A stretch of 16,284 nt of DNA from an archaeon. GTDB lineage: Archaea; Iainarchaeota; Iainarchaeia; Iainarchaeales; Iainarchaeaceae. Under the pieces are notes generated by a model, which was not told the DNA's origin, did no database searches, and worked only from the letters and a program-made list of their open reading frames with translations. Shown one piece after another: positions 769 to 15,676 of this stretch; the first letter of the stretch is position 1; each line of letters opens with the position of its first letter. Both the position numbers and the translations under genes were made by a program. The stretch is taken from contig JBBSVV010000048.1 in the NCBI GenBank assembly GCA_038046625.1, positions 1 to 16,284 of the forward strand, given 5' to 3'.

Positions 769-821
769 TTCTCTTTCTTTTTCGCCAACGTTTTTCTTTC
801 TCTTTCGAAGAGAAAGAAAAA
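769..821. repeat. Perfect mirror repeat plus inverted repeat (potential intrastrand triplex / H-DNA motif)
   Basis: 769-782 TTCTCTTTCTTTTT is the exact mirror of 791-804 TTTTTCTTTCTCTT, and 808-821 AAGAGAAAGAAAAA is the exact reverse complement of 791-804. Confidence 0.85.
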
Positions 822-824
822 GGC

Positions 825-845: not shown

Positions 846-2275
<1,430 letters not shown>

Positions 2276-2281
2276 TTCTGC

Positions 2282-3199
2282 TTGCTTGAAACAAAATTCT
2301 GCGGTCTCGAAATGAAGAACCCCACGAGGCTTGCCTCCGGAATACTCGGCGTAAACGCCGGCCAGCTCATAAGGGTTGCGAAGGAAGGTGCGGGCGCGGT
2401 AACGATGAAGAGCATTGGTCCGCGCGAGCACGAAGGGCACAAGAACCCGACAGTAATAGAGTGGGAGCATGGATTGATCAACGCGGTGGGATTGCCGACT
2501 CCCGGATACAAGAATTGTGATGATGAGTTCGAGGAACTGAAAGAGCTCAAAAAAATCAAAGTGCCTTTGATTGCGAGCATTTACGGAACGAAGTGGGAGG
2601 AATTCATAGAGGTTGCGCAGTACGTTGCCTCGAAGAAGCCGGATGCGATTGAGCTTGACATTTCCTGCCCCAACACAGAGTGGGGAGGAACGCAGTTCGC
2701 GTGCGACCCGAAACTTTCAGGCAAAATAGTTTCCGAAGTGAAGAATGCGTGCGGAAAAATCCCATTGATTGCGAAACTTACTCCCGCAGCCAATTCCCCT
2801 GTTGAAGTGGGTGTTGCCTGCGAGGAGGCAGGCGCGGACGCGATTTGCGCGGGAAACACGATGCCGGGCATGATAATCAATGCTGATGCTATGAGGCCTG
2901 TGCTCGCTTTCAAAAAGGGCGGTATCAGCGGCCCCGCACTCAAGCCTATCAACCTGAAAATCACTTACGAGCTTTACGAAAAAATAAAAATTCCGATTAT
3001 AGGCGAGGGTGGAATCGGAAGCGGCAATGACGCCTTGGAGTACATAATGGCCGGCGCAACCCTGTGTGGGATAGGAAGCGCTGTGTGGCAGTCAGGCACA
3101 GGAGTTTTCAAAAAAACCTGCAATGAAATGGATGCATGGATGAAGGAAAACGGGTTTTCAAATCTGGAAAAATTGCGGGGAATCGCGCATGAAAAGTGA
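2282..3199 (+). CDS. pyrD: Dihydroorotate dehydrogenase family 1B catalytic subunit
   Basis: KNP..LASG, TMKS, NAVGL, ISCPN, AKLTP, GGISGPALKP, IPIIGEGGI and IMAGA motifs. Followed by pyrK. Confidence 0.96.
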   Translation: MLETKFCGLEMKNPTRLASGILGVNAGQLIRVAKEGAGAVTMKSIGPREHEGHKNPTVIEWEHGLINAVGLPTPGYKNCDDEFEELKELKKIKVPLIASIYGTKWEEFIEVAQYVASKKPDAIELDISCPNTEWGGTQFACDPKLSGKIVSEVKNACGKIPLIAKLTPAANSPVEVGVACEEAGADAICAGNTMPGMIINADAMRPVLAFKKGGISGPALKPINLKITYELYEKIKIPIIGEGGIGSGNDALEYIMAGATLCGIGSAVWQSGTGVFKKTCNEMDAWMKENGFSNLEKLRGIAHEK

Positions 3200-4076
3200 A
3201 GAAAAGGAAAATGAGAATGGTGATTGCGGCCGTTGCGGTTGTAAATGCGAAAGCGAAAAGTGGCCTTCGCACACAAAAATGCGCATGGTTGAAATCGAGA
3301 AAGTGCGGGAAGAATTTTCCGGCAACATGACGTTTTACATGGATGAGGAACTTTGCTTCGAGCCGGGGCAGTTTGCAATGGTCTGGCTTCCCGGCATTGA
3401 AGAGAAGCCGATTGCGTTGATTCCGAGCGGGAAAAAATACGCCTTGAACATCGAGGGCAAGGGCGAAGCCACAAAAAAAATGCTTTCCCTGAAAAAGGGC
3501 GGCAAGTTAGGCGTCAGGGGGCCTTATGGAAGGGGCTTCAGCACACATGGGGTGAAGAAAGCCGCAATTGTTGCGGGTGGAGTGGGAATTGATTCGATTG
3601 TTTTGCTATCACAGAAACTCAAGGAAAACGGGTGCAAGGCAAAAATAATCCTCGGCGGCAGAAACAAAGAAAGGATTGTGTTCGAGAAGGAGCTGAAACA
3701 ACACGGGGAAATATACATAACAACTGATGACGGTTCTTACGGGGAAAAAGGTTACAATGTGCAGGTGCTCGAGAGGCTGCTTGCAAAGGAAAAGTTCGAC
3801 ATTATTTACGCGTGCGGCCCGGAAATAATGACCTTAAAGGCTTTTGAAATAGCACAGAAATTCAAGACGCGCTTCGAGGGCTCGCTGGAAAGGTACATGA
3901 AGTGCGGCATAGGAATCTGCGGCGAGTGCGTAATCAATGACAAGCTGGTTTGCTCGGACGGCCCGGTTTTCAACGAAAAGGAACTTTCAAAGCTCACTGA
4001 ATTCGGGAAAACGGCTTATTTGAAAAGCGGGCGCAGGGTTTCGCTGAAGGAATACTACGAGTGGCGGTCGCATTGA
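3189..4076 (+). CDS. pyrK: Dihydroorotate dehydrogenase electron transfer subunit (FAD, 2Fe-2S)
   Basis: FEPGQFAMVW, VRGPYGRGF, VAGGVG, TDDGSYG, YACGPE and MKCGIGICGEC..VCSDGPVF. An alternative start at ATG 3279 is possible. Confidence 0.95.
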   Translation: MKSEEKENENGDCGRCGCKCESEKWPSHTKMRMVEIEKVREEFSGNMTFYMDEELCFEPGQFAMVWLPGIEEKPIALIPSGKKYALNIEGKGEATKKMLSLKKGGKLGVRGPYGRGFSTHGVKKAAIVAGGVGIDSIVLLSQKLKENGCKAKIILGGRNKERIVFEKELKQHGEIYITTDDGSYGEKGYNVQVLERLLAKEKFDIIYACGPEIMTLKAFEIAQKFKTRFEGSLERYMKCGIGICGECVINDKLVCSDGPVFNEKELSKLTEFGKTAYLKSGRRVSLKEYYEWRSH

Positions 4077-5338
4077 GTCTCGCACTGAACAATGGCAAGG
4101 CTTTTGTCAACGGAAAACTCTCAATGCTGAACATCCTCATTGAAGGAAAAAAAATTTCGGGGATTTCAAAAAAGAGGTTCGGCACCGAAAAGGAAATAGA
4201 TTGCAACGGCAAAATCATTCTGCCCGGCGCAATTGATGCGCACGTGCATTTCAGGTGCCCGGGCTTTGAACACAAGGAAGACTGGTTTTCTGGCTCGCTC
4301 GCGGCACTGCACGGCGGCATTACCACTGTGATGGACATGCCGAACACAAAGCCCGCGACAGATTCAAGGAATGCGCTCGAGGAGAAAAGGGCGATTGCGA
4401 AAGATGCAATGGTGAACAAGGATTTTTTTGTCGCGGCAACAAACGAGAATCTGCAGGAGATTGCCTCTATCCCGGATTTGCGCGGAGTGAAGGTTTACTA
4501 TGGCCCGACAACAGGAAACATACTCTTCAATGACTCCGCAAAGCTCGCGGAATTGTTCAGGCTCTCAAAGAAAAACGGTTTTGTGGTTGTTGTGCATGCC
4601 GAAGATGAGGAAACAATTTCTCGGAACGCAAAAAAGTTTGCCGGAATAGAGGATGCTTCTGTGCACGAAAAAATCGGGAGCGAGGAAGCCGAGGCAAAGG
4701 CCATCGCGGGGCTGATTGAACTGCACAAAAAAAACGGCGGCAAGCTGCACATTGCGCACGTGTCCTCGCGCAAAGGAATTCAGCTGATTGCAAGGGCAAA
4801 GAAAACCAAATCAGGAAAAAACCTCACGTGCGAGGCCACACCGAACCACCTTTTTTTGGATTCAAGCGCATACAAAAAACTCGGAAATTTAGTGAAATGC
4901 AATCCTTCCATAAAAAGCGCAGTACACAGGAAAGCGCTGTGGAAAGCGTTCGTCAAAGGAACCATTGATATTGTCGCGACGGACCACGCGCCGCACACGC
5001 AGGAAGAAAAAGCGAAGAAATATTCCGAGGCGCCTTCAGGAATCCCGGGGGTTGAAACAATGCTCCCGCTGCTTTTGGATGCGGTGAGCAGGAAGAAAAT
5101 TCCATTGAAAAGGGTTGTCGAAGCGGTTTCCGAAAAGCCGGCGCAAATTTTCAATTGGAAAACCAAGGGGCTCATAAAAAAGGGTTTTGATGCCGATTTG
5201 GTGATTATAGATATGAAAAAGGCTTTTACCGTGAAAAACGAGGAGCTTTTCACCAAGGCAAAGTATTCCCCTTTCAACGGACAAAGGTTAAAATGCTTTA
5301 TCGCGCAGGCTATTGTCGGGGGACAGCCTTATGGATGA
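4073..5338 (+). CDS. pyrC: Dihydroorotase (amidohydrolase superfamily)
   Basis: LPGAIDAHVHFR, GGITTVMDMPNT, HAED, HIAHVSS, CEATPNHL, IVATDHAPH and GFDADL motifs. TTG at 4073 gives a TTGA overlap with the pyrK stop. Confidence 0.95.
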   Translation: MSLALNNGKAFVNGKLSMLNILIEGKKISGISKKRFGTEKEIDCNGKIILPGAIDAHVHFRCPGFEHKEDWFSGSLAALHGGITTVMDMPNTKPATDSRNALEEKRAIAKDAMVNKDFFVAATNENLQEIASIPDLRGVKVYYGPTTGNILFNDSAKLAELFRLSKKNGFVVVVHAEDEETISRNAKKFAGIEDASVHEKIGSEEAEAKAIAGLIELHKKNGGKLHIAHVSSRKGIQLIARAKKTKSGKNLTCEATPNHLFLDSSAYKKLGNLVKCNPSIKSAVHRKALWKAFVKGTIDIVATDHAPHTQEEKAKKYSEAPSGIPGVETMLPLLLDAVSRKKIPLKRVVEAVSEKPAQIFNWKTKGLIKKGFDADLVIIDMKKAFTVKNEELFTKAKYSPFNGQRLKCFIAQAIVGGQPYG

Positions 5339-5954
5339 ACGCACTGAACTGGCTTTGAAGCTGCAGGAAATAGGCGCGATAAAATTCGGCCTGTTCACGC
5401 TGAAATCAGGGCTGAAAAGCCCCGTGTATGTTGACCTGAGGCTTCTTATCTCATATCCCGATGCCTTGAAGCTCGTGGCAAAATTGCTCGCAAAAAAAGC
5501 CGAGTCGGAAAAGCTCGAGTTTGATGCGATTGCGGGAATTCCTTTTGCGGCTATTTCGATTGCCACAGCGGTTTCGCTGGAGAAAAACTGGCGCATGGTT
5601 TTTCCGAGGAAAGAACAGAAGGAGTACGGCACCAAAGTGAGTGTCGAGGGCAAGTATTCAAAGGGGGAAACGATTCTCGTGATTGACGATTTGATTACCA
5701 CAGGCGGAAGCAAGTTCGAGGCAATCGCGCCCCTGGAAAAAGAGGGTTTGCGCGTGAAGGACATTTTGGTTTTGGTTGACCGCGAGCAGGGCGGCAAAAA
5801 GGAACTATTGAAGGAAAACTACCGTTTGCATTCGGTGTTCAAAATTACGGAGTTGCTTGAACTGCTGAATGAAAATGGAAAGATTGACTCGCTGCTTTAC
5901 GACAGCGCAAAGGAATACTTCGCAAACCCGGAGAAATGGGGCGAGGGCAAATGA
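5331..5954 (+). CDS. pyrE: Orotate phosphoribosyltransferase
   Basis: FTLKSGLKSPVYVDLR, RKEQKEYG, PRPP motif VIDDLITTGGS and LVDREQGG. ATG 5331 overlaps the end of pyrC. Confidence 0.97.
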   Translation: MDERTELALKLQEIGAIKFGLFTLKSGLKSPVYVDLRLLISYPDALKLVAKLLAKKAESEKLEFDAIAGIPFAAISIATAVSLEKNWRMVFPRKEQKEYGTKVSVEGKYSKGETILVIDDLITTGGSKFEAIAPLEKEGLRVKDILVLVDREQGGKKELLKENYRLHSVFKITELLELLNENGKIDSLLYDSAKEYFANPEKWGEGK

Positions 5955-6259
5955 CAGAGCAATTTTTCAGCAACGAAGAAATGGATCGAATTTTCCGAAT
6001 AATCAAGAGTGATAGTGCTGTGGTCCACAAAGCCAAGGAACTGCAGGCACTGGTGGATGCGATTAGCAGAGAAAGGCGAATCGAAAAAGCTAAAGTGAGA
6101 AGACAGATTGCAGAGTCTTTGGGCTTTAAAGGGCACCTTCGCAAGCTGATTTTATTGCCAAAAAGAGTAGGGCAAAGAAGGGACAAGGGGGAAACTGAAA
6201 AATGGCTTATTAAAGATATTGGCCGGCGCCCTAAAAGCCTGAGGAGGCCAAGAGCGTGA
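5951..6259 (+). CDS. Small basic hypothetical protein inside the pyr operon
   Basis: ATGA overlap with the pyrE stop and GTGA overlap with the pyrF start, filling the gap exactly. K/R-rich, no recognisable motif. Confidence 0.7.
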   Translation: MTEQFFSNEEMDRIFRIIKSDSAVVHKAKELQALVDAISRERRIEKAKVRRQIAESLGFKGHLRKLILLPKRVGQRRDKGETEKWLIKDIGRRPKSLRRPRA

Positions 6260-6969
6260 AGCAAATCATAAAACTACCGAGGAGCATTGTGCCTGCATGT
6301 GACTTCAGCTCATTGAAGGAACTCGAGTCACTCGTGAAGGAAATAGATTCCGTTGAAGGAATCGGCGCTTACAAAGTGGGTTTTGAATTGGGTTTGGTGC
6401 ACGGCCTGCCGAAGGTTGTCGAGACAGCGAGGAAGCACAGCAGCAAGCCGATTATTTACGATCACCAAAAAGCCGGAACCGATGTCCCTTTCATGGGAGA
6501 AAATTTTGCAAAGGTCTGCAAAGGCGCAGGCATTGACGCCGTGATTCTTTTTCCCCAGGCCGGCCCGGAAACGGAGAAAGCCTGGATAAAGGCATGCTTG
6601 AAGGAAGGCCTCGGTGTGATTGTGGGCGGCGAGATGACGCATCCGGGCTATCTTGAGGCGGAGAACGGTTTTCTGATGAACTCGGCTCCGCGGAGAATGT
6701 ATGAAACCGCGATTGCGGAAGGAATCACTGAATTCGTTGTTCCGGGCAACAAGCCGGAAAAAATAATTGAATACCGCAAATTGTTCGAATCAAAAAAGGT
6801 CGATGCTACCCTTTATTCCCCAGGTTTGGTTTCGCAGGGCGGAAGCATTTCCGATTCCGGAAAAGCCGCCGGAGAAAAGTGGCACGCGATTGTAGGAAGG
6901 GCGCTTTACAAGGCGAAGGATAAAAGGAAAGCCGCGCTCGAACTTTGCAGGGAACTCGGCCCAAAATAA
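6256..6969 (+). CDS. pyrF: Orotidine-5'-phosphate decarboxylase (divergent OMPDC/HUMPS-fold)
   Basis: IVPACD, YKVG, D..K...D motif (DHQKAGTD), SPGLVSQGG and IVGRALY. Last gene of the pyr operon. Confidence 0.88.
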   Translation: MKQIIKLPRSIVPACDFSSLKELESLVKEIDSVEGIGAYKVGFELGLVHGLPKVVETARKHSSKPIIYDHQKAGTDVPFMGENFAKVCKGAGIDAVILFPQAGPETEKAWIKACLKEGLGVIVGGEMTHPGYLEAENGFLMNSAPRRMYETAIAEGITEFVVPGNKPEKIIEYRKLFESKKVDATLYSPGLVSQGGSISDSGKAAGEKWHAIVGRALYKAKDKRKAALELCRELGPK

Positions 6970-7062
6970 TATCAAAAGACATTATTTTCAATAAAATTCC
7001 ATGATGCCTTTTGATACCTATCAAAGGACAAATTTTACAAGTATTTTTGTCCTTTTATATAA
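6970..7062. promoter_or_regulatory. Tandem inverted repeats (four related half-sites) overlapping the AMP phosphorylase TATA box
   Basis: 6970-6984 pairs with 7002-7016 (13/15) and 7019-7032 pairs with 7046-7059 (13/14). TTTTATATAA at 7053-7062. Confidence 0.6.
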
Positions 7063-7093
7063 CCTTTAAAAATCGGGACTGCTTATTCTTAAC

Positions 7094-8635
7094 ATGGAAA
7101 AAAATGCAGGCAATGGCTCTAGCTACTCGCAGATGCTCAAGGTAAAGACCATAGACATACTCTCCGGAAAACTTATTGTCATCCTGAACAAAATAGACGC
7201 AAAGGAACTCGGTTTGCTGCCTCTGGACAGGGTTGAAATAACGAATCCGCGCAACAAGAAGGCCACGAACGCGGTTGTCGACGTGACTGATTCGCTTACA
7301 GGAGAAGACGAAATAGGGATTTTCAAGGACGTGCAGGAGCTTTTGGGGGTGAAGGACGGCGCCGAGGTTGAGGTGAGGCCAAGCGGAAAGCCGAGAAGCA
7401 TTGAGTTCATCAAGGCGAAGCTCGACGGAAAACCCCTGAACCAGGAGCAGTTGAAGTGCATTATTGATGACATTGCCTCGAACAGGCTGAGTGAAGTGGA
7501 GACAACGGCGTTTGTTTCCGCAATCTATATGCACGGCCTCGACCTCGAGGAAACCGTCTCCATGACAAAGGCGCTCATTGAAAATGGCAAAAAACTCGAG
7601 ATAGCCGACACGCTTTGCGTTGACAAGCATTCCATCGGCGGCACAAACGGGCGCGCGACAATGATAATTGTCCCGATAATTGCGGCCGCGGGCTACTGCA
7701 TACCAAAAACATCATCGAGGTCGATTACCTCGGCATCCGGAACCGCAGATGCAATGGAAGTGCTGGCAAACGTGTCACTTACTTTAGATGAGATAAGGAA
7801 TGTCGTGAAAAAAACCAGCGGGTGCATCGTGTGGGGCGGCGCGGTTGAACTGGCGCCAGCGGACGACAAAATAATAAAAATCGAATATCCTCTTTCCCTT
7901 GACCCTGAAGGGCAGGTGATTGCTTCTGTAATGGCGAAAAAAGCGAGCGTCGGCGCAAAATACGTCGTAATAGATTTGCCGATCGGCCCTTACGTGAAAA
8001 TAAAGTCCCGCGAAAAGGCAGAGTTAATGGCCCTGAAGTTCATTGAGGTAGGGAAAAAGCTCGGCATAAGGGTCGAGGTTGTGCTTACAAACGGCTCGGA
8101 ACCGAGCGGGCGCGCATTCGGGCCCGCATTGGAGGCGAAGTACGCGCTTGAAATACTTGAGGGAAAGTTCTTCGACAACCTCGCGCAGAAGTCAGTTGAA
8201 TTGTCGGGTGCGCTCCTTGAGCTTGTTGGGGATGTCCCAAAAGGCAGCGGCTTTGAAAAGGCGCTCAGCATCCTGCAGTCCGGAAAGGCGCTTGAAAAAA
8301 TGAAGGAAATAATAAGGGCGCAGGGAGAAAAAATAAATTCTTCCAAAGAAATCGAATTTGCGCAATTCAAGACGCAGATTATTTCGCAGGACTCCGGGGA
8401 AATAAGCTCGATTAACGTCGGCTTGCTTAACAGGATAGCGAGAATGGCGGGAGCGCCCGCAAACAAGAAGGCCGGCGTAATGCTTTTGGTGAAGAACGGC
8501 GAAAAAGTTTCGAATGGCCAGCCGCTTTTCGAGATTTACGCGGAGAACGAGAGGAAACTTTATTCGGCGCATAATTTTGCGAAGAACAGCCCAGTGATTG
8601 AGCTGCAAAGAATCATTCTGGAAAAATTTTCCTGA
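7094..8635 (+). CDS. deoA: AMP phosphorylase (archaeal thymidine phosphorylase family, N-terminal double-psi barrel)
   Basis: N-terminal DAKELGLLPLDRVEI domain, DKHSIGG, PKTSSRSITSASGTAD, WGGAVELAPADD..I.IEYPLSLD, ASVMAKK and IARMAGAP. Confidence 0.95.
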   Translation: MEKNAGNGSSYSQMLKVKTIDILSGKLIVILNKIDAKELGLLPLDRVEITNPRNKKATNAVVDVTDSLTGEDEIGIFKDVQELLGVKDGAEVEVRPSGKPRSIEFIKAKLDGKPLNQEQLKCIIDDIASNRLSEVETTAFVSAIYMHGLDLEETVSMTKALIENGKKLEIADTLCVDKHSIGGTNGRATMIIVPIIAAAGYCIPKTSSRSITSASGTADAMEVLANVSLTLDEIRNVVKKTSGCIVWGGAVELAPADDKIIKIEYPLSLDPEGQVIASVMAKKASVGAKYVVIDLPIGPYVKIKSREKAELMALKFIEVGKKLGIRVEVVLTNGSEPSGRAFGPALEAKYALEILEGKFFDNLAQKSVELSGALLELVGDVPKGSGFEKALSILQSGKALEKMKEIIRAQGEKINSSKEIEFAQFKTQIISQDSGEISSINVGLLNRIARMAGAPANKKAGVMLLVKNGEKVSNGQPLFEIYAENERKLYSAHNFAKNSPVIELQRIILEKFS

Positions 8636-9443
8636 AAACATTCGCGAGTTCCGCGCTTTCAAGCACATTGGTTTTCGCTTCAAGCAGCTTTGCACCGACT
8701 TTTGCCATTGCTTTTTTATAGTCCTTTACCCCGAGGCTCGCGCCCGACTCCTTCAGCGCGTTCTGCAGCGCATTCGAGAGGTTCTTGTTCTTGAACCTGA
8801 AGAGGCTCTTGAGGAAAGCCGCGAGCCTTTCGGTTTGTTTCCTTGAAAAGCCGTGCTTTTTGCCGCGGAGCACCATCATTGCGGAGTAAGTAACCGGTTT
8901 TGGAAAAAAGGCTTTCGGGTAGATGCTGTGCATGACCACTTCCTTGCCGAACAGCAAATCCGTCAGCACGGAAAGATGGCCGCGCGAATGAAAGCCCGGT
9001 TCGGAAACTATTTTTTCCACGAACTCGCGCTGGAAAACAACCACGGCCATTTTGAATTCCAGGAAGCAGATTTTCGTCATTATTTCCGAGGAAATGTTGA
9101 ATGGGGGAAGCGAAACTATCTTCGTTATTTTCGGCAATTCGGCATCCAGAAAATCGCCCTCAATCAGCGTGAAGTTTTTGTTTCCCGAAAACCTTTCCCT
9201 GAGGGCTTCGCATAGCAATTGGTCCTTTTCAACGCAAACCACTTTGCAGTACTGCAGAAGCTTTTCCGTGAGAAAGCCCGTGCCTCCCCCTATTTCAAGC
9301 ACGACATCCTTTTGGGTTAGCTCGGCCTCCTCAACCATCCTGAGAATGACGGCTTCGTCTATGATGAAGTTCTGCCCGAGCCTGTGGTTCGGCCTGAACC
9401 TGTGCCGGATCATCTGGTTCTGGAGGTCTGAAAGAAGGCTCAT
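8613..9443 (-). CDS. rsmA: 16S rRNA adenine dimethyltransferase RsmA/KsgA/Dim1
   Basis: LGQNFIID, VLEIGGGTGFLT, VEKD, GDFL, FQREF and FFPKP motifs. Conserved archaeal synteny with DUF655, rpoF and rpl21e. Overlaps the convergent AMP phosphorylase 3' end by 23 bp. Confidence 0.93.
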   Translation of the reverse strand: MSLLSDLQNQMIRHRFRPNHRLGQNFIIDEAVILRMVEEAELTQKDVVLEIGGGTGFLTEKLLQYCKVVCVEKDQLLCEALRERFSGNKNFTLIEGDFLDAELPKITKIVSLPPFNISSEIMTKICFLEFKMAVVVFQREFVEKIVSEPGFHSRGHLSVLTDLLFGKEVVMHSIYPKAFFPKPVTYSAMMVLRGKKHGFSRKQTERLAAFLKSLFRFKNKNLSNALQNALKESGASLGVKDYKKAMAKVGAKLLEAKTNVLESAELANVFRKIFPE

Positions 9444-9463
9444 AAGGATTTAAAGCATTTGCA

Positions 9464-9479
9464 ATTTTTTAAACTTACT
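9464..9479 (-). promoter_or_regulatory. Putative TATA box of a leaderless rsmA transcript
   Basis: Minus strand reads AGTAAG-TTTAAAAAAT, with the TTTAAAAA box about 23-30 nt upstream of ATG 9443. Confidence 0.5.
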
Positions 9480-9800
9480 ATCGAGCCCTAAAGGACAAAG
9501 ATAGTACTCGTACAACGCAAGCCCGCGTTGGGGGGCACACACCTCTGGCAATGCTGTTCTTACTATCGAACGCCCAAAGGCGACCTTGCAGAATCAAAGA
9601 TTCTGCGAGGCCTCGTACCCTTACGGGTACAAGGAGATAGTACTCGCACGCCGCCTGCCCGCGGCGGTGGAGCGCACGCCTCCCTCGTCCCGTCGGGACG
9701 GGGCCTCGTACCCATTGGGTACAAGGTCGGCAGTGCAGTTCTTGCTATCGAGTCCCGAAGGGACGAAGATAGCAGTCGCACCCAACCGCCGAAACGGTTG
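9474..9800. repeat. Tandem mosaic array of three structured units plus nested hairpin cassettes
   Basis: Units CTTRCTATCGA-[hairpins]-AGATAGYASTCGYAC at 9474-9513, 9559-9649 and 9741-9781, joined by homologous hairpin linkers. CCTCGTACCC..GGGTACAAGG is duplicated at 9611-9634 and 9704-9726. Confidence 0.9.
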
Positions 9801-9802
9801 TG

Positions 9803-10384
9803 TCAGAACCTGTGCCGCGGCCTGAACTCGTGCTCCTTTGCGGGGGGCCTCGCGAAGAGATAATACTTTACGTCGTTGCCCTCGAGCTCCTCGACCACGC
9901 GGCCAACAATCGCCCTGATCGGGTTCGGCATCAAATGAACGCGCTTCTCCAGGTCCTCGAAGGATTCGAATGCGCCCTTTTCGCGCTCCGACACAATCTG
10001 GAGCATGTGCTTTTTCCCCAAGCCAGGCAAGAGCTCGAGCTGGTGCCTCTTTATTGTTATGCTCTGCGCGGCATTGTAAAAGTCAAGGTATTTTTGCTTG
10101 TTGTCGGCAACGATTTTTTCAACCGCCTTTTCGAGCTCGGCAAGCGAATTGCTCGTGAGGTCCTTGAACGCAATCCTTCTCTTTATGAAGTCTATTTTCG
10201 GCCTGTTTTCCTTGCCCACGTAAACCTCTTCCAGCGCCTTCAGGTCGGAATCCTTTTTTGGAATCACTTCAAGAAGAGTGAAGTACTCTGTGCCGATGAG
10301 CTGTGCCAGTGGCTCTGTCTTGTAACCCGAGCTCCTGCCTCGCGGCAGATAATCAAGTACCAGTGCTTTTTCTTCCGCTTTCAT
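9803..10384 (-). CDS. DUF655 putative RNA-binding (OB-fold/HhH) protein
   Basis: LVLDYLPRG, AQLIGTEYFTLLE, HQLELLPGLGKK, FESFEDL..RV and KYYLF. GGTGA SD before ATG 10384. Typical position after rpoF. Confidence 0.92.
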   Translation of the reverse strand: MKAEEKALVLDYLPRGRSSGYKTEPLAQLIGTEYFTLLEVIPKKDSDLKALEEVYVGKENRPKIDFIKRRIAFKDLTSNSLAELEKAVEKIVADNKQKYLDFYNAAQSITIKRHQLELLPGLGKKHMLQIVSEREKGAFESFEDLEKRVHLMPNPIRAIVGRVVEELEGNDVKYYLFARPPAKEHEFRPRHRF

Positions 10385-10425
10385 GTGGGTTTTCACCTTG
10401 AAAAAAATTAGTGGCAAGGGGGAAT

Positions 10426-10761
10426 TTACTTTGCGTACTTCGAAGTGGCTGCAACCACTTGCTCGAGCTTTGCGTTGTCGATGCCCATGTCCTTGCCCGA
10501 GATGAGCCTGGCGGCGTTCACGTCTAGCGGCAGGATATCCACCGCCTTGGTTATGAAATCTTCGCTTAAGCCTTCAATTTCCCTGAGTTCCTTGAGGAGC
10601 TTCTCGCCCTTTGCAGGGGTTATTTTCGAAAACTTTTTCGAGTACTCGAATGCCTGCTGCTGCTCGTAATTGAGTTCGCCGTCCTTGCTCCTTTCGGCAA
10701 GAACCTCATTTACCGCGTAAAGCGGGATGTTTTCCCTTGAAATAACCTGTTTTCCGATCAT
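10426..10761 (-). CDS. rpoF: DNA-directed RNA polymerase subunit Rpo4 (F)
   Basis: MIGKQVIS, ELNYEQQQAFEYSKKFSK and KAVDILP motifs. ATGA overlap with rpl21e. Confidence 0.93.
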   Translation of the reverse strand: MIGKQVISRENIPLYAVNEVLAERSKDGELNYEQQQAFEYSKKFSKITPAKGEKLLKELREIEGLSEDFITKAVDILPLDVNAARLISGKDMGIDNAKLEQVVAATSKYAK

Positions 10762-11096
10762 GCTGCCACCTTTGCCCTTTCGTTTTCTTTTTTTTGCTGC
10801 TGCCCCGTGCCCCTTGAAATGGTGAGGTGCGCAGGATGCACAATAAGTTCAACGGGCTTGTTGCCCTTTGAAACAGCCACCATGAAAGCAACTCCCCTTT
10901 TCCCCGTAACTGTTCCTGTAAACCCTTGATAGCGGGTAGGCGGCATTGCCGAGTGCACTGAACTGTCTATCCTTATGTCCACCTTGCTGCCGATAGGGAT
11001 TTCCTGAAGCATCTTATTTACGGTAACATCGGGGCCCTTTTTCTTCAAAAGGTCCCTGGACTTTTTCCTCGGCCCCTTGGCCTTTTTGCTCGGCAT
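10758..11096 (-). CDS. rpl21e: 50S ribosomal protein eL21
   Basis: KGPRKKSRDLLKK, GSKVDIRIDSSVHSAMP..RYQGFTGTV.GKRG and IVHPAHL. Likely start ATG 11096 (MPSKK). Confidence 0.95.
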   Translation of the reverse strand: MPSKKAKGPRKKSRDLLKKKGPDVTVNKMLQEIPIGSKVDIRIDSSVHSAMPPTRYQGFTGTVTGKRGVAFMVAVSKGNKPVELIVHPAHLTISRGTGQQQKKENERAKVAA

Positions 11097-11159
11097 GAAA
11101 ACAGCTACCCAAATCAATTGAGAATTATACTATTCCCCCCTGAAAACATTTAAATACCT

Positions 11160-13057: not shown

Positions 13058-13183
13058 GCAGTTCTTGCTATCGAGTCACGAAGGGACGAAGATAGCAGCC
13101 CTCAACGGTTTGACGAAAGAATATTGCCTTTTTTTCTTGCTGTCAAACCGTTGCCGCCGCGGGCTTGCGGCGCGAAACTGTTG
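13058..13183. repeat. Dispersed copy of the hairpin-module family
   Basis: 13058-13098 matches 9735-9775 at 40/41 nt. 12-bp inverted repeat at 13103-13114/13142-13153. CGCCGC-GGGCTT-GCGGCG at 13155-13172 is an inverted copy of the 9513/9649 module. CGAAACTGTTG at 13173-13183. Confidence 0.9.
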
Positions 13184-13200
13184 AAGGAAGGTTTTTAAAC
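13183..13200 (+). promoter_or_regulatory. BRE/TATA promoter of 5S rRNA
   Basis: GAAGGAAGG-TTTTTAAAC ending about 22 nt upstream of the 5S 5' end. Confidence 0.7.
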
Positions 13201-13221: not shown

Positions 13222-13341
13222 TGATTAGCGGTCATAGCGGCGGGGAAACACCTGGTCTCATTCCGAACCCAGAAGTTAAGCCCGTTAGCGATTTGGTCCA
13301 GCCCTGTTCAACGAATGGAGCTTCCAAGACGCTGCTAATCA
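13222..13341 (+). rRNA. rrf: 5S rRNA (stand-alone)
   Basis: Helix I TGATTAGCGG/CTGCTAATCA and the conserved stretch GGTCATAGCGGCGGGGAAACACCTGGTCTCATTCCGAACCCAGAAGTTAAGCCC. About 120 nt. Confidence 0.95.
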
Positions 13342-13375: not shown

Positions 13376-14617
13376 TCATGCATATTTCATTTTCTGATTC
13401 GTGCTCTTTAATGAATGCAGAACCAGCTGTTTCATGAAAATCGTGAAATGCACGTCATTCCTGCTTTTGGATAGTTTTGTTAGTTCCATATACTGCTGTA
13501 CAAAACCCGCTGGAAATGTCATGAGCGGGAAGCCGTTCAGCATCAGTGTATGGGCAAATAGGGCGCGGGATGTCCTTGAGTTACCATCTATGAACGGATG
13601 TATTCTCTGGAATTCACTATGAAGATATGCCGCAAAATCTACAATTTCGTGCGGCTTCATTTTTTTCTGTATATTTTGTTTATAGTATTCGAATAAATCT
13701 TCGAGTCTTCGTGGCAAATCTTTCCAGTCAGCAATCCGAAATTCTGGATTTCCTTTTATCGCAACATTCTGTATCCTCAGTTCTCCTGCCCCGGCTTCGA
13801 TCCAATTCATTGCCTTTGCATGAAACGCCAGGATTTTCTGAAAGTTGATGGGGGTTTTGCCCTTGATGAGCATATCTAGGGCCTTCTTGTAATCTGTTGT
13901 TTCCTGCATTTCTTGGAAAGTCCTGTTTTTTGGGGGAATATTTTGTTTTATGAGCCTCGCGGTTTCAGACAAGGTCATTGTATTACCTTCTAGCGACAAG
14001 CTGCGGTGGATAAACCTTACTTCATCATCAATGCTCGTCTGTTTTGGGGATTTTTTGAATTTTCCAAATTCGGAATCCAGTTTGAGGTTCAGGTTTTCCT
14101 CATCCGCGCCTTCAAATATATTTTTGTGGTTTATTCGGGCTTCTCCTTTAAGCAATTCGACGACATTCTTTAGGAAATCTGAGTATACAAGTGTTCCGGA
14201 AAATGGTTTCCGGGACTCTATTAGAAGAAAGCCGTGTTTTGAGAGAAAGCTTGAAATTCTTGCGATTGTTTTGCTGTTAAAATGTTCCCCTGTGGCATGT
14301 TTTTTTTCTAGCCCAATCTTTATGAATTCCAAGGTTTTGTCCAAAAACAACTCATTGTAATCAATCGCATTTCTCACGCAGAAATCAAGTATTCGTATAA
14401 GCTTGATTGATTTTTCAGTTTTTTGTAAAAAGTATTTTTTTTCTTCAACCTTAAGAAAGCCCTCTTCTGCAAGCTGTTTGAGCCGCTTATAAAATGCATC
14501 ATATTCATATGGCGTTTTGCCAAGCTTTTTGAGCAATTCCGAGGCGGCCAAGCCTTCATTTAGAAAAACCGAATAAAGCAGATCGTACTTTGAAACCACG
14601 TTGAAATTTATCACCAA
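13376..14617 (-). CDS. Fic-domain protein with N-terminal winged-helix-like region
   Basis: Fic motif HPFIDGNSRTSR, inhibitory-type motif SLSLEGN and AGELRIQNVAI. The N-terminal ASELLKKLG...AFYKRLKQLAEEGFLKVEEKKY resembles a wHTH. Start TTG 14617 or GTG 14614. Confidence 0.9.
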   Translation of the reverse strand: MVINFNVVSKYDLLYSVFLNEGLAASELLKKLGKTPYEYDAFYKRLKQLAEEGFLKVEEKKYFLQKTEKSIKLIRILDFCVRNAIDYNELFLDKTLEFIKIGLEKKHATGEHFNSKTIARISSFLSKHGFLLIESRKPFSGTLVYSDFLKNVVELLKGEARINHKNIFEGADEENLNLKLDSEFGKFKKSPKQTSIDDEVRFIHRSLSLEGNTMTLSETARLIKQNIPPKNRTFQEMQETTDYKKALDMLIKGKTPINFQKILAFHAKAMNWIEAGAGELRIQNVAIKGNPEFRIADWKDLPRRLEDLFEYYKQNIQKKMKPHEIVDFAAYLHSEFQRIHPFIDGNSRTSRALFAHTLMLNGFPLMTFPAGFVQQYMELTKLSKSRNDVHFTIFMKQLVLHSLKSTNQKMKYA

Positions 14618-14705: not shown

Positions 14706-14827
14706 ATGCGAGCGAAGCGGGCCATGGCCCTGCGAAGCAGGGGCAATCGCACCCAACCGACGAATCGAACAGCAAGACAAAAGCAGCGATATTTCTTTTG
14801 CTCGATTCGTTGCAGCCGAAACGGTTG
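14706..14827. repeat. Dispersed copy of the hairpin-module family with nested insert
   Basis: TCGCACCCAACCG (14747-14759) and CCGAAACGGTTG (14816-14827) are identical to 9776-9800 but split by a 56-bp hairpin. GCGAAGC mini-hairpins at 14712 and 14732. Confidence 0.85.
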
Positions 14828-15676
14828 CTAAACCACCGGCGCGAGAAGGAGCAGCGCTATAAAGAGCCCTATTGCCTCAAGCCCGAGGATGAGCCTCAGG
14901 AGGAACTTTTGCAGTGATGATTCGCGCTCGTCAAGGCCGAGTATTACGGGCGCAATTGAAAGATTGGCCTGCACGAAGAAGAAGAAAAGCAGAATCACGT
15001 TCACTATCGCGGGAACAAGGATGCCGAGGAAAAAGAATATTATGAAAACCGCGACCAGGAAAACGAACTTGAGGAGCATGAACACCCTCAAATGCATATT
15101 CTCTGCCCTAAACAGGAACAGCAGCGGAAAAACAACGAGCAGCGAAAAAACAAAGAATATTATGTTGCCGGCCTCGAATCCTCCTGGCACCTTCGAAACG
15201 GATTTTGTGAGCACCACAGCGCACGCAAGATTCTCGTTCTCAGCAGTAAGTTGCGGGCAGCGCGAAATGAATTTTTCGTCAATCTTGCTTTTCGGGAAAA
15301 ACTGCGCAGCTTGTTTGAGCTTGTTTGCCTTTTCGCACAGCACAAAGAACCCGACCTCCTGGTCCGAGTCCCCTGTGTAGGTCATTTTTGTTCCGTCAAG
15401 GTCGGTGTGCCAATTCGGGTTGCTGCTGAATTCTCCGAGCGAAAGGCAAACGTTCCGCGCCTCAACCTGCTCGGCGATGCGCGAAGCGTTTATGGAGTCC
15501 GCAAGTTCCTGCGCGGTTATTGTCTGCTGGTAAGAGGAACTTGATGCGGAAAATCTCTTTACGAGGTCGAGGGATTGCTGCGAAATTTCTTTCGAAAGCG
15601 TGCTGTCTGTTTCGGCGGCATGGGCAAATAATGAAAGCAGCAGGAGCAGCAGAACGGCAAAAAGCGCCTTTTTCAT
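14828..15676 (-). CDS. Hypothetical membrane protein (signal peptide, extracytoplasmic domain, about 4 C-terminal TM helices)
   Basis: MKKALFAVLLLLLLSLFAHA signal peptide, four Cys in the soluble domain, hydrophobic C-terminal third. Confidence 0.8.
   Translation of the reverse strand: MKKALFAVLLLLLLSLFAHAAETDSTLSKEISQQSLDLVKRFSASSSSYQQTITAQELADSINASRIAEQVEARNVCLSLGEFSSNPNWHTDLDGTKMTYTGDSDQEVGFFVLCEKANKLKQAAQFFPKSKIDEKFISRCPQLTAENENLACAVVLTKSVSKVPGGFEAGNIIFFVFSLLVVFPLLFLFRAENMHLRVFMLLKFVFLVAVFIIFFFLGILVPAIVNVILLFFFFVQANLSIAPVILGLDERESSLQKFLLRLILGLEAIGLFIALLLLAPVV

Follow-up and report, generated by a model that had tools for sequence, protein, structure and literature searches.

What occupies the spacer between rsmA and the gene for a DUF655 protein in this 16,284-nt stretch of archaeal DNA (the whole of which we call the window)? 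The spacer, 359 nt at positions 9444-9802, is filled by a chain of GC-rich hairpins. An earlier note had described it as a three-unit tandem array with compensatory base changes, either a repeated noncoding RNA or processing array or an expanding DNA element. The evidence favors a DNA element, because a composite of ~180 nt recurs at an unrelated locus, its modules are recombined, nested and present in both orientations, and no Rfam family matches them; local tandem expansion is only part of the story. We consider it probable that the array is a single copy of a non-autonomous, low-copy and lineage-specific family of palindromic DNA repeats in the Diapherotrites (Iainarchaeum-like, DPANN), the hairpins of which are kept by structural constraint.

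The spacer is a chain of hairpin modules

The G+C content of the spacer is 0.55 to 0.63, compared with 0.46 to 0.53 for most of its surroundings; the adjoining 3' end of the DUF655 gene reaches 0.59. Folding both strands, as the earlier note had advised, gave -156.7 kcal/mol for the plus strand (z = -6.90) and -166.5 kcal/mol for the minus strand (z = -7.10), and on neither strand did any of 100 shuffled sequences fold as well. The core pattern of the units, CTATCGA-N(8-38)-GATAG, matched three times in the window against 0.00 expected, a count reached in none of 200 shuffles. The pattern is thus present beyond chance.

The modules of the array are listed in Table 1. The outer stems read in the earlier note, TACTATC/GATAGTA in units 1 and 2 and TGCTATC/GATAGCA in unit 3 and again at 13066-13097, were all recovered, so that three units with a 7-bp outer stem are indeed present. 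They do not make up a simple tandem array: successive units begin at intervals of 85 and 182 nt, the units are 78 to 98% alike, unit 2 is a long form, and the second linker carries a 47-nt insert that is missing from linker tail 1 and from the corresponding tail on L001, a contig of a related genome described below. Tandem Repeats Finder reported no array at the spacer. The two linker tails align with each other, in line with the homology proposed for them. The outer stem of unit 2 closes three hairpins (9571-9582, 9584-9610 and 9611-9634), two of them extra, in the shape of a four-way junction. In unit 1 the inner hairpin (GCCC/GGAC, 9485-9496) contains a mismatch that reads C.A on the plus strand and G.U on the minus strand; in unit 3 it is GTCCC-GAA-GGGAC at 9752-9764. 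The chain runs from a TATA-like run upstream of rsmA (9464-9473), which unit 1 abuts, to within 2 nt of the DUF655 stop codon (9803-9805).

We surveyed 44.7 kb of window and related-locus sequence by short-word BLAST, motif scans and a covariance model of the short unit (R1). The module set comprises a double-stem unit of 33 to 35 nt, a GC linker hairpin, a conserved tail, a CCTCGTACCC/GGGTACAAGG hairpin (three copies plus variants) and a CGCACCCAAC...CGAAACNGTTG terminal module, in the order (unit-linker-tail)n-unit-terminal, in short spacers between the 3' end of a gene and the next promoter. Eight units were found, starting at 9474, 9560, 9742 and 13058 in the window and lying at 3374-3325 and 3293-3194 of L001 and at 8848-8896 and 3636-3592 of a second related contig, L003. 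All eight are extragenic, in spacers between predicted genes. Short units span 31 to 32 nt from stem to stem, with a 7-bp outer and a 4- to 5-bp inner helix, and are flanked by conserved GTTCTT on the 5' side and CTCGCAC on the 3' side. Four of the six linker GC hairpins are direct and two inverted; of the six copies of the CGCACCCAAC box, three carry a minimal hairpin and the other three a longer, variable sequence. The L003 3636-3592 unit, detected by the covariance model alone (24.3 bits, E = 4e-06), is degenerate and has lost its inner hairpin.

Two repeat copies on L003 meet predicted reading frames. The TAA stop of a 113-aa open reading frame (ORF) lies within the outer stem of the degenerate unit (3627-3643), so that the repeat provides the end of this frame. 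Elsewhere, a 215-aa ORF without a confident family (5295-5942) extends through a copy of the terminal module (5357-5427) as well as the promoter region of the gene that follows; it is over-called, or else its 3' end has been lengthened by the repeat.

Outer stems change on both sides of a pair

In an alignment of the eight units, 56 of 56 cells of the 7-bp outer stem were paired. Three of its seven pairs had changed on both sides (UA to AU once, AU to GC three times and UA to CG once), and no one-sided change was seen; the paired A-T to G-C change of the earlier note is therefore real. The covariation score of the outer stem was 0.296 against 0.123 in shuffles and at most 0.204 in slid controls, and it was reached in none of 500 shuffles, a count that should not be taken as a probability since it comes from eight related copies. 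Independent events are few, units 3 and 4 being near-identical, and the scan pattern had fixed most of the outer stem for two of the eight copies; the UA-to-CG and UA-to-AU variants (I1b and I3b) come from copies outside that selection. The linker stem, too, bore out the difference noticed between its two copies in the array (9513-9530 and 9649-9666), where two positions have changed on both sides. Across all copies, CAACGC/GCGTTG occurs twice and CGCCGC/GCGGCG three times, and one copy holds the intermediate CACCGC/GCGGCG with an A.C mismatch.

The inner stem showed no double changes among the short units (alignment A1), and 82.6% of its cells pair, a figure partly lowered by the gaps that MAFFT placed in two rows. 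Mismatches occur in two copies, C.A in unit 1 and A.G in the 13066 copy, and the stem is lost outright in one. It had been said that the inner hairpin varies but still pairs; the hairpins are there, but their pairing is imperfect. Likewise, the view that structure rather than sequence is conserved holds for the pairing but was overstated, as 26 of 50 columns are invariant among the five short units.

The double changes argue for a base-paired form, which could be single-stranded DNA, a cruciform or RNA. In bacteria, repetitive extragenic palindromes (REPs) keep their pairing by complementary mutations and combine into bacterial interspersed mosaic elements (BIMEs), according to excerpts of a published account (PMC2817692). 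Since these DNA palindromes show such mutations as well, compensatory change by itself is no pointer to RNA.

The same substitutions bear on the idea that a dimeric protein binds the units next to promoters as double-stranded DNA, in the form of palindromic operators or of cruciform architectural sites. The outer arms are indeed perfect inverted repeats of each other, unit 1 abuts the TATA-like box of rsmA, and bacterial REPs and BIMEs bind integration host factor (IHF), gyrase and Pol I, as excerpted from the same account (PMC2817692). However, matched double substitutions (five cells, none one-sided) are predicted by base pairing and not by two half-sites, the inner region is itself a hairpin, and the distance to the promoter varies from 3 nt for unit 1 to ~94 nt for the copy at 13058. 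We regard this explanation as very unlikely.

A kink-turn, to which L7Ae would bind, was considered and rejected. Kink-turns consist of a C-stem, a 3-nt bulge, tandem G.A/A.G pairs and an NC-stem. The plus strand sets GGGAC-GAA-GA-UAG opposite CUAUC-GA-GUCCC, and the covarying pairs (columns 16-97, 17-96 and 19-94 of alignment A3) fit a plain 7-bp Watson-Crick register, in which the GA is paired.

The array is an instance of a dispersed composite

We scanned a collection of 185,579 species genomes with an exact pattern of the canonical short unit that placed no constraint on the inner hairpin or on the covarying R..Y position; such a pattern misses diverged copies. It matched eight loci (L001 to L008). 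True relatives, with the same flanking modules, were L001 and L003 only, two separate contigs of Candidatus Iainarchaeum andersonii SCGC AAA011-E11. L002 (Methanothrix) was rejected for its lack of flanking modules, its matches to the module motifs being merely inexact 10- to 13-mers, and L007 for having only inexact matches to short motifs; L004, L005, L006 and L008 were taken as chance from organism names and tetranucleotide correlation alone. This correlation was 0.95 to 0.96 between the window and L001 or L003, 0.94 between L001 and L003, and 0.41 to 0.67 between the window and the six other loci. The window's own two matches were missing from the output, so its genome is either absent from the collection or masked. 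After a best match of 99% identity, the next-best matches of the DUF655 protein (72 to 73% identical), like most other named matches, are assigned to Candidatus Diapherotrites. The window thus comes from Ca. Iainarchaeum andersonii or a close relative, and the copies compared may all be paralogs of one genome.

The key correspondence joins window positions 9468-9648 (short unit, linker, tail and long unit) to L001 3376-3165 on the minus strand. The two are colinear, with a mean column identity of 85% over the whole aligned pair, and the L001 copy has a geranylgeranyl reductase-like gene on one side and a UPP synthase gene on the other. Within it, 67 nt of the interior of unit 2 match L001 3196-3262 with 92.5% identity. 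Unit 1 with linker 1 is 92.7% identical over 41 nt to L003 8872-8912, compared with 78% to its neighbor in the array, and the 18 nt of linker hairpin 1 are identical to L003 8893-8910; both units 1 and 2 have closer counterparts elsewhere than among their array neighbors. Because unit 1 and its linker are closer to L003 than to the adjacent copy, the array is, as judged from these alignments, an instance of a dispersed composite that was extended by one further linker-tail-unit period, and not just a local duplication.

The window contains two more composites. One lies between the genes for the TATA-binding protein (TBP) and 5S rRNA (13058-13183); it equals L003 3636-3565 on the minus strand, upstream of rpiA, except that the window copy holds an inserted hairpin of 51 nt. 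Its unit, the fourth of the window, shares 98% identity with unit 3 in a stretch of 41 nt and has the A.G mismatch in its inner stem. The other lies at 14722-14829, where positions 14729-14777 are 93.9% identical to L003 4097-4145. Altogether, the modules recur in different combinations, inverted and nested inside one another. The 359-nt spacer had no match in the plasmid and phage collections, and the local density of elements is biased, L001 and L003 having been chosen as carriers.

Orientation and transcription

Seven loci have flanking genes that run in the same direction. The element is in sense orientation in four of them and antisense in three, so that conservation does not extend to any single RNA sequence. 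Every element occupies the interval from the 3' end of a gene to the next A/T-rich TATA-like box, such as 9464-9473 upstream of rsmA and 13192-13199, ending 25 nt ahead of 5S; we infer from the usual archaeal promoter layout that these boxes are promoters. In all three composites in antisense orientation, the terminal hairpin follows the end of the upstream gene, a stop codon or the 3' end of a tRNA, at a distance of 0 to 2 nt. The element between DUF655 and rsmA is probably read through on the minus strand; this would separate DUF655 from the rsmA promoter by ~330 nt of stable stem-loops, comparable to REPs in bacterial operons.

On L003 (7562-9062), the gene for tRNA-His (8987-9062, minus strand) is directly upstream of that for histidyl-tRNA synthetase (7562-8824, minus strand), with only a hairpin composite between them and the terminal hairpin beginning right at the tRNA 3' end. 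In the window, a stand-alone 5S rRNA gene (13224-13340, 74.2 bits) is directly downstream of TBP; it has its own TATA-like box and no 16S or 23S rRNA gene nearby.

Positions of this kind would also suit elements that work as cis-acting RNA in either orientation, as exonuclease barriers, processing sites or insulators that, within highly compact operons, uncouple neighbors such as tRNA-His and hisS or DUF655 and rsmA, with selection on the RNA keeping the pairing. In addition to the exact fit between gene 3' ends and TATA-like boxes and to the terminal hairpins just past the upstream gene, the structure is very stable on both strands, and three loci involve translation-related genes (rsmA, 5S rRNA and tRNA-His/hisS). 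In three modules, transition-type mismatches would read as G.U on the strand complementary to the unit; in one module, they would do so on the unit strand itself. In five of the seven loci, the presumably transcribed strand is the one with the more stable fold, a trend that is not significant (p of ~0.23). Against this explanation, the mixed orientation leaves no one RNA sequence conserved, no Rfam family was found, and the shuffled and nested modules, together with the degenerate copy at L003 3592-3636, look like the decay of a repeat. We think such a role possible but unlikely.

The units are compact double-stem structures with the conserved flanks described above, and the long form folds as a four-way junction with a 7-bp closing stem, features that could suit independently transcribed small ncRNA genes, a multicopy small RNA family in tandem array. 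No TATA-like box was found upstream of unit 2, unit 3 or the 13058 copy; the sole A/T box, beside unit 1, is placed to serve rsmA, and the modules fill the whole spacer with no terminator T-runs between units. In the window, ARAGORN found no tRNA gene, which also disposed of a tRNA-like reading of the long unit, similar to a four-way junction in shape only. Rfam 15 at the gathering threshold identified 5S rRNA alone in the window and nothing in the array; at E <= 10, positions 9300-9950 gave two subthreshold matches, of 14.8 and 14.3 bits against cutoffs of 33.6 and 37. We consider small RNA genes highly improbable.

Other known classes of sequence were examined as well. None of the three ORFs over the array had a Pfam family, and the longest (111 aa) had no homolog among the proteins searched, where five candidates shared words and none scored. 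A CRISPR array was rejected on the spacing and divergence of the units, on the recurrence of the "spacers" elsewhere and on the lack of a Cas family among the window ORFs. Bulge-helix-bulge motifs and integron attC sites were rejected by eye, the bulge and the core-site layout, respectively, not fitting.

Comparison with known palindromic repeats

How might a family of palindromic DNA repeats of this kind be maintained? We propose that it has no gene of its own and would spread as DNA, either with a transposase acting in trans or through replication or recombination at the hairpins; pairing would be kept because the form that is propagated or tolerated is the hairpin, as single-stranded DNA, as a cruciform or as RNA when transcribed. 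In its anatomy, the family is closest to the REP/BIME mosaics and to the palindromic elements of haloarchaea.

Like the proteobacterial REP/BIME elements, which are associated with REP-associated tyrosine transposases (RAYTs), the units are short imperfect extragenic palindromes, the short forms being within the 20 to 40 nt of REPs. The excerpted account describes specific linkers that join palindromes into mosaic, partly tandem composites, complementary mutations that preserve palindromy, and frequent cotranscription inside operons, which we count among the shared features (PMC2817692). Unlike REPs, the units have no GTAG/CGTC head, their flanks being GTTCTT and CTCGCAC. They are also few, whereas REPs exceed 100 copies per genome, and no Y1_Tnp (RAYT) domain was found among the 54 ORFs of the 44.7 kb surveyed, which is part of the genome only. 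A 2018 survey of 172 archaeal genomes, as excerpted, reports only IS200-type Y1 transposases and no REP-associated subclass (PMC6006769).

The archaeon Haloquadratum, according to excerpts of another study, harbors transposase-free palindrome-associated transposable elements (PATEs) together with small mobile repeats (SMRs), which use the palindromes of other elements as insertion sites and leave no target duplication (PMC3119063). As with PATE/SMR-A of Haloquadratum walsbyi, our elements are in an archaeal host, too short for a transposase and palindrome based, with palindromes near their ends and no evident target duplication; in both cases families are heterogeneous, and insertion into the palindromes of others gives rise to nested conglomerates (PMC3119063, as excerpted). 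SMR-A, at ~110 bp, is much longer than our units of 33 to 82 nt, and the likeness proposed here is one of anatomy. The ends of PATEs and SMRs relate to IS605-type transposons, and no IS605-type parent was seen in the 44.7 kb. In contrast to the IS-rich genome of Haloquadratum, the host genome here is small, of DPANN type.

Two further comparisons are looser. GC-rich hairpin modules are likewise reported to invade the intergenic spacers of compact organelle genomes in sponge mitochondria and in Volvox (PMC2800124, PMC2670323); these belong to a different domain of life, and no homology is implied. Miniature inverted-repeat transposable elements are similarly small, noncoding and dispersed with inverted arms, but our elements differ from them in having no target-site duplication, no related autonomous insertion sequence and composite ends that are not inverted repeats of each other.

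Several observations weigh against a mobile DNA family. The 54 ORFs (21 in the window and 33 in the loci) include neither a Y1/HUH transposase nor TnpB nor another candidate that could move the family. Where modules are inserted there is no target-site duplication, and no empty site was seen. The units of the array and of L001 are all direct, head to tail, whereas BIME units alternate. The family is low-copy, since only two more canonical units were found among the 185,579 genomes, both in one genome. To these points we add the relatedness of the eight copies behind the covariation count and the trend in strand stability, which leans toward constraint at the RNA level. A link to an IS5-like DDE transposase on L001 (11757-12755) was rejected, as its 27-nt terminal repeats are unrelated; L001 ends in the start of an IS66-like gene.

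Neighboring genes and other features

The array lies within a conserved archaeal string of four minus-strand genes (L21e, an Rpb4/RpoF-like ORF, DUF655 and RsmA; Table 1). Translation of DUF655 probably starts at M12, which would give 193 aa as in its homologs. A DUF655 protein 99% identical to it is encoded on a contig of only 1,454 nt, and the assembly may have broken at the hairpin array beside that gene.

A 37-nt direct repeat (9369-9405 and 9797-9833, 76% identical) brackets the array in frame in both genes and encodes similar basic peptides, HRFRPNHRL at the N terminus of RsmA and HEFRPRHRF, followed by the stop, at the C terminus of DUF655. Its origin by gene fission or as a long target duplication was rejected. 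A FRPRxRF tail, loosely judged, is kept in 13 of 14 aligned Diapherotrites homologs, which indicates that the DUF655 tail is native and that the repeat is no insertion scar; a search for DUF655 fusion proteins of 358 to 2000 aa found none, which is weak evidence.

Table 1. Modules of the rsmA-DUF655 spacer, flanking genes and further composites in the window
Feature	Position	Strand	Description
Unit 1, short form	9474-9512	+	Outer stem TACTATC 9476-9482 / GATAGTA 9500-9506; model score 61.3 bits
Linker hairpin 1	9513-9530	+	CAACGC-AAGCCC-GCGTTG
Linker tail 1	9531-9559	+	GCACACACCT..GGCAATGCTGTT; homologous to tail 2 and L001 tail
Unit 2, long form, 82 nt	9560-9648	+	Outer stem TACTATC 9561-9567 / GATAGTA 9636-9642
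Linker hairpin 2	9649-9666	+	CGCCGC-CTGCCC-GCGGCG; two stem positions changed on both sides relative to linker 1
Linker tail 2	9667-9741	+	47-nt insert of two hairpins, 9686-9700 and 9704-9726
Unit 3, short form	9742-9776	+	Outer stem TGCTATC 9743-9749 / GATAGCA 9768-9774; 71.4 bits
Terminal module	9777-9800	+	CGCACCCAAC box and hairpin CAACCG-CCGAAA-CGGTTG
rsmA (RrnaAD)	8613-9443	-	E 7.6e-47; downstream of array
DUF655 gene	9803-10417	-	E 6.6e-60; upstream of array
Rpb4/RpoF-like ORF (weak)	10426-10761	-	Same gene string as L21e
L21e	10758-11117	-	Member of conserved archaeal gene string
Fourth unit	13058-13098	+	Between TBP and 5S rRNA; TGCTATC 13066-13072 / GATAGCA 13091-13097; 64.3 bits
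51-nt hairpin	13103-13153	+	12-bp arms, T7 run in loop; insert relative to L003 3565-3636
Inverted linker-type GC hairpin (13155-13172) and CGAAACTGTTG tail	13155-13183	+	96.8% over 31 nt to L003 3565-3595
Related composite	14722-14829	+	Between two minus-strand genes; CCTGCGAAGCAGG hairpin, CGCACCCAAC box, variable insert, CGAAACGGTTG end

The composite at 14722-14829 is upstream of the start of a gene (13376-14617, minus strand) for a 413-aa protein that combines a Fic/DOC domain with an F-93-like winged helix at its N terminus. Another repeat family, unrelated to the first, consists of A/T-rich polypyrimidine/polypurine palindromes with a perfect 14-bp stem (e.g., window 791-821). It occurs at window 769-823, between divergent genes, and at L003 4284-4338, 4385-4436 and 11930-11954; window and L003 copies are 88 to 90% alike, and three copies lie within one 595-nt L003 spacer. 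Positions 861-6969 of the window hold a complete-looking pyrimidine operon (pyrB, pyrI, pyrD, pyrK-like, dihydroorotase-like, a phosphoribosyltransferase, a 107-aa unknown and pyrF), and such a biosynthesis operon is notable in a DPANN-type genome. L003 also carries two free-standing ORFs with a LAGLIDADG domain (1874-2755 and 6375-7436), and L001 a gene like that for the large subunit of [FeFe]-hydrogenase (8124-9215).

Implications

In the literature searched, which did not include the original genome paper, we came upon no account of repeats like these in Iainarchaeum or the Diapherotrites. More speculatively, and in our view rather improbably, the modules could form a self-propagating system native to the Diapherotrites, in which stem-loops insert into spacers and into each other without a classical transposase nearby and which the host may use as orientation-independent RNA insulators or processing signals that uncouple packed genes (tRNA-His/hisS, DUF655/rsmA and TBP/5S). 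If true, this would be the first REP/BIME-like system in Archaea.

For the analysis of other genomes, the array serves as a warning that compensatory changes in repeated palindromes alone do not indicate a functional RNA. Hairpin repeats of this kind may explain assembly breaks, and the family would serve as a marker for strain typing of uncultured Diapherotrites. DPANN genomes are very small and tightly packed, and the persistence of selfish or structural repeats in them is unexpected. REP-type systems are regarded as bacterial, and a mosaic hairpin family in this archaeon would extend the class to a new domain and lineage.

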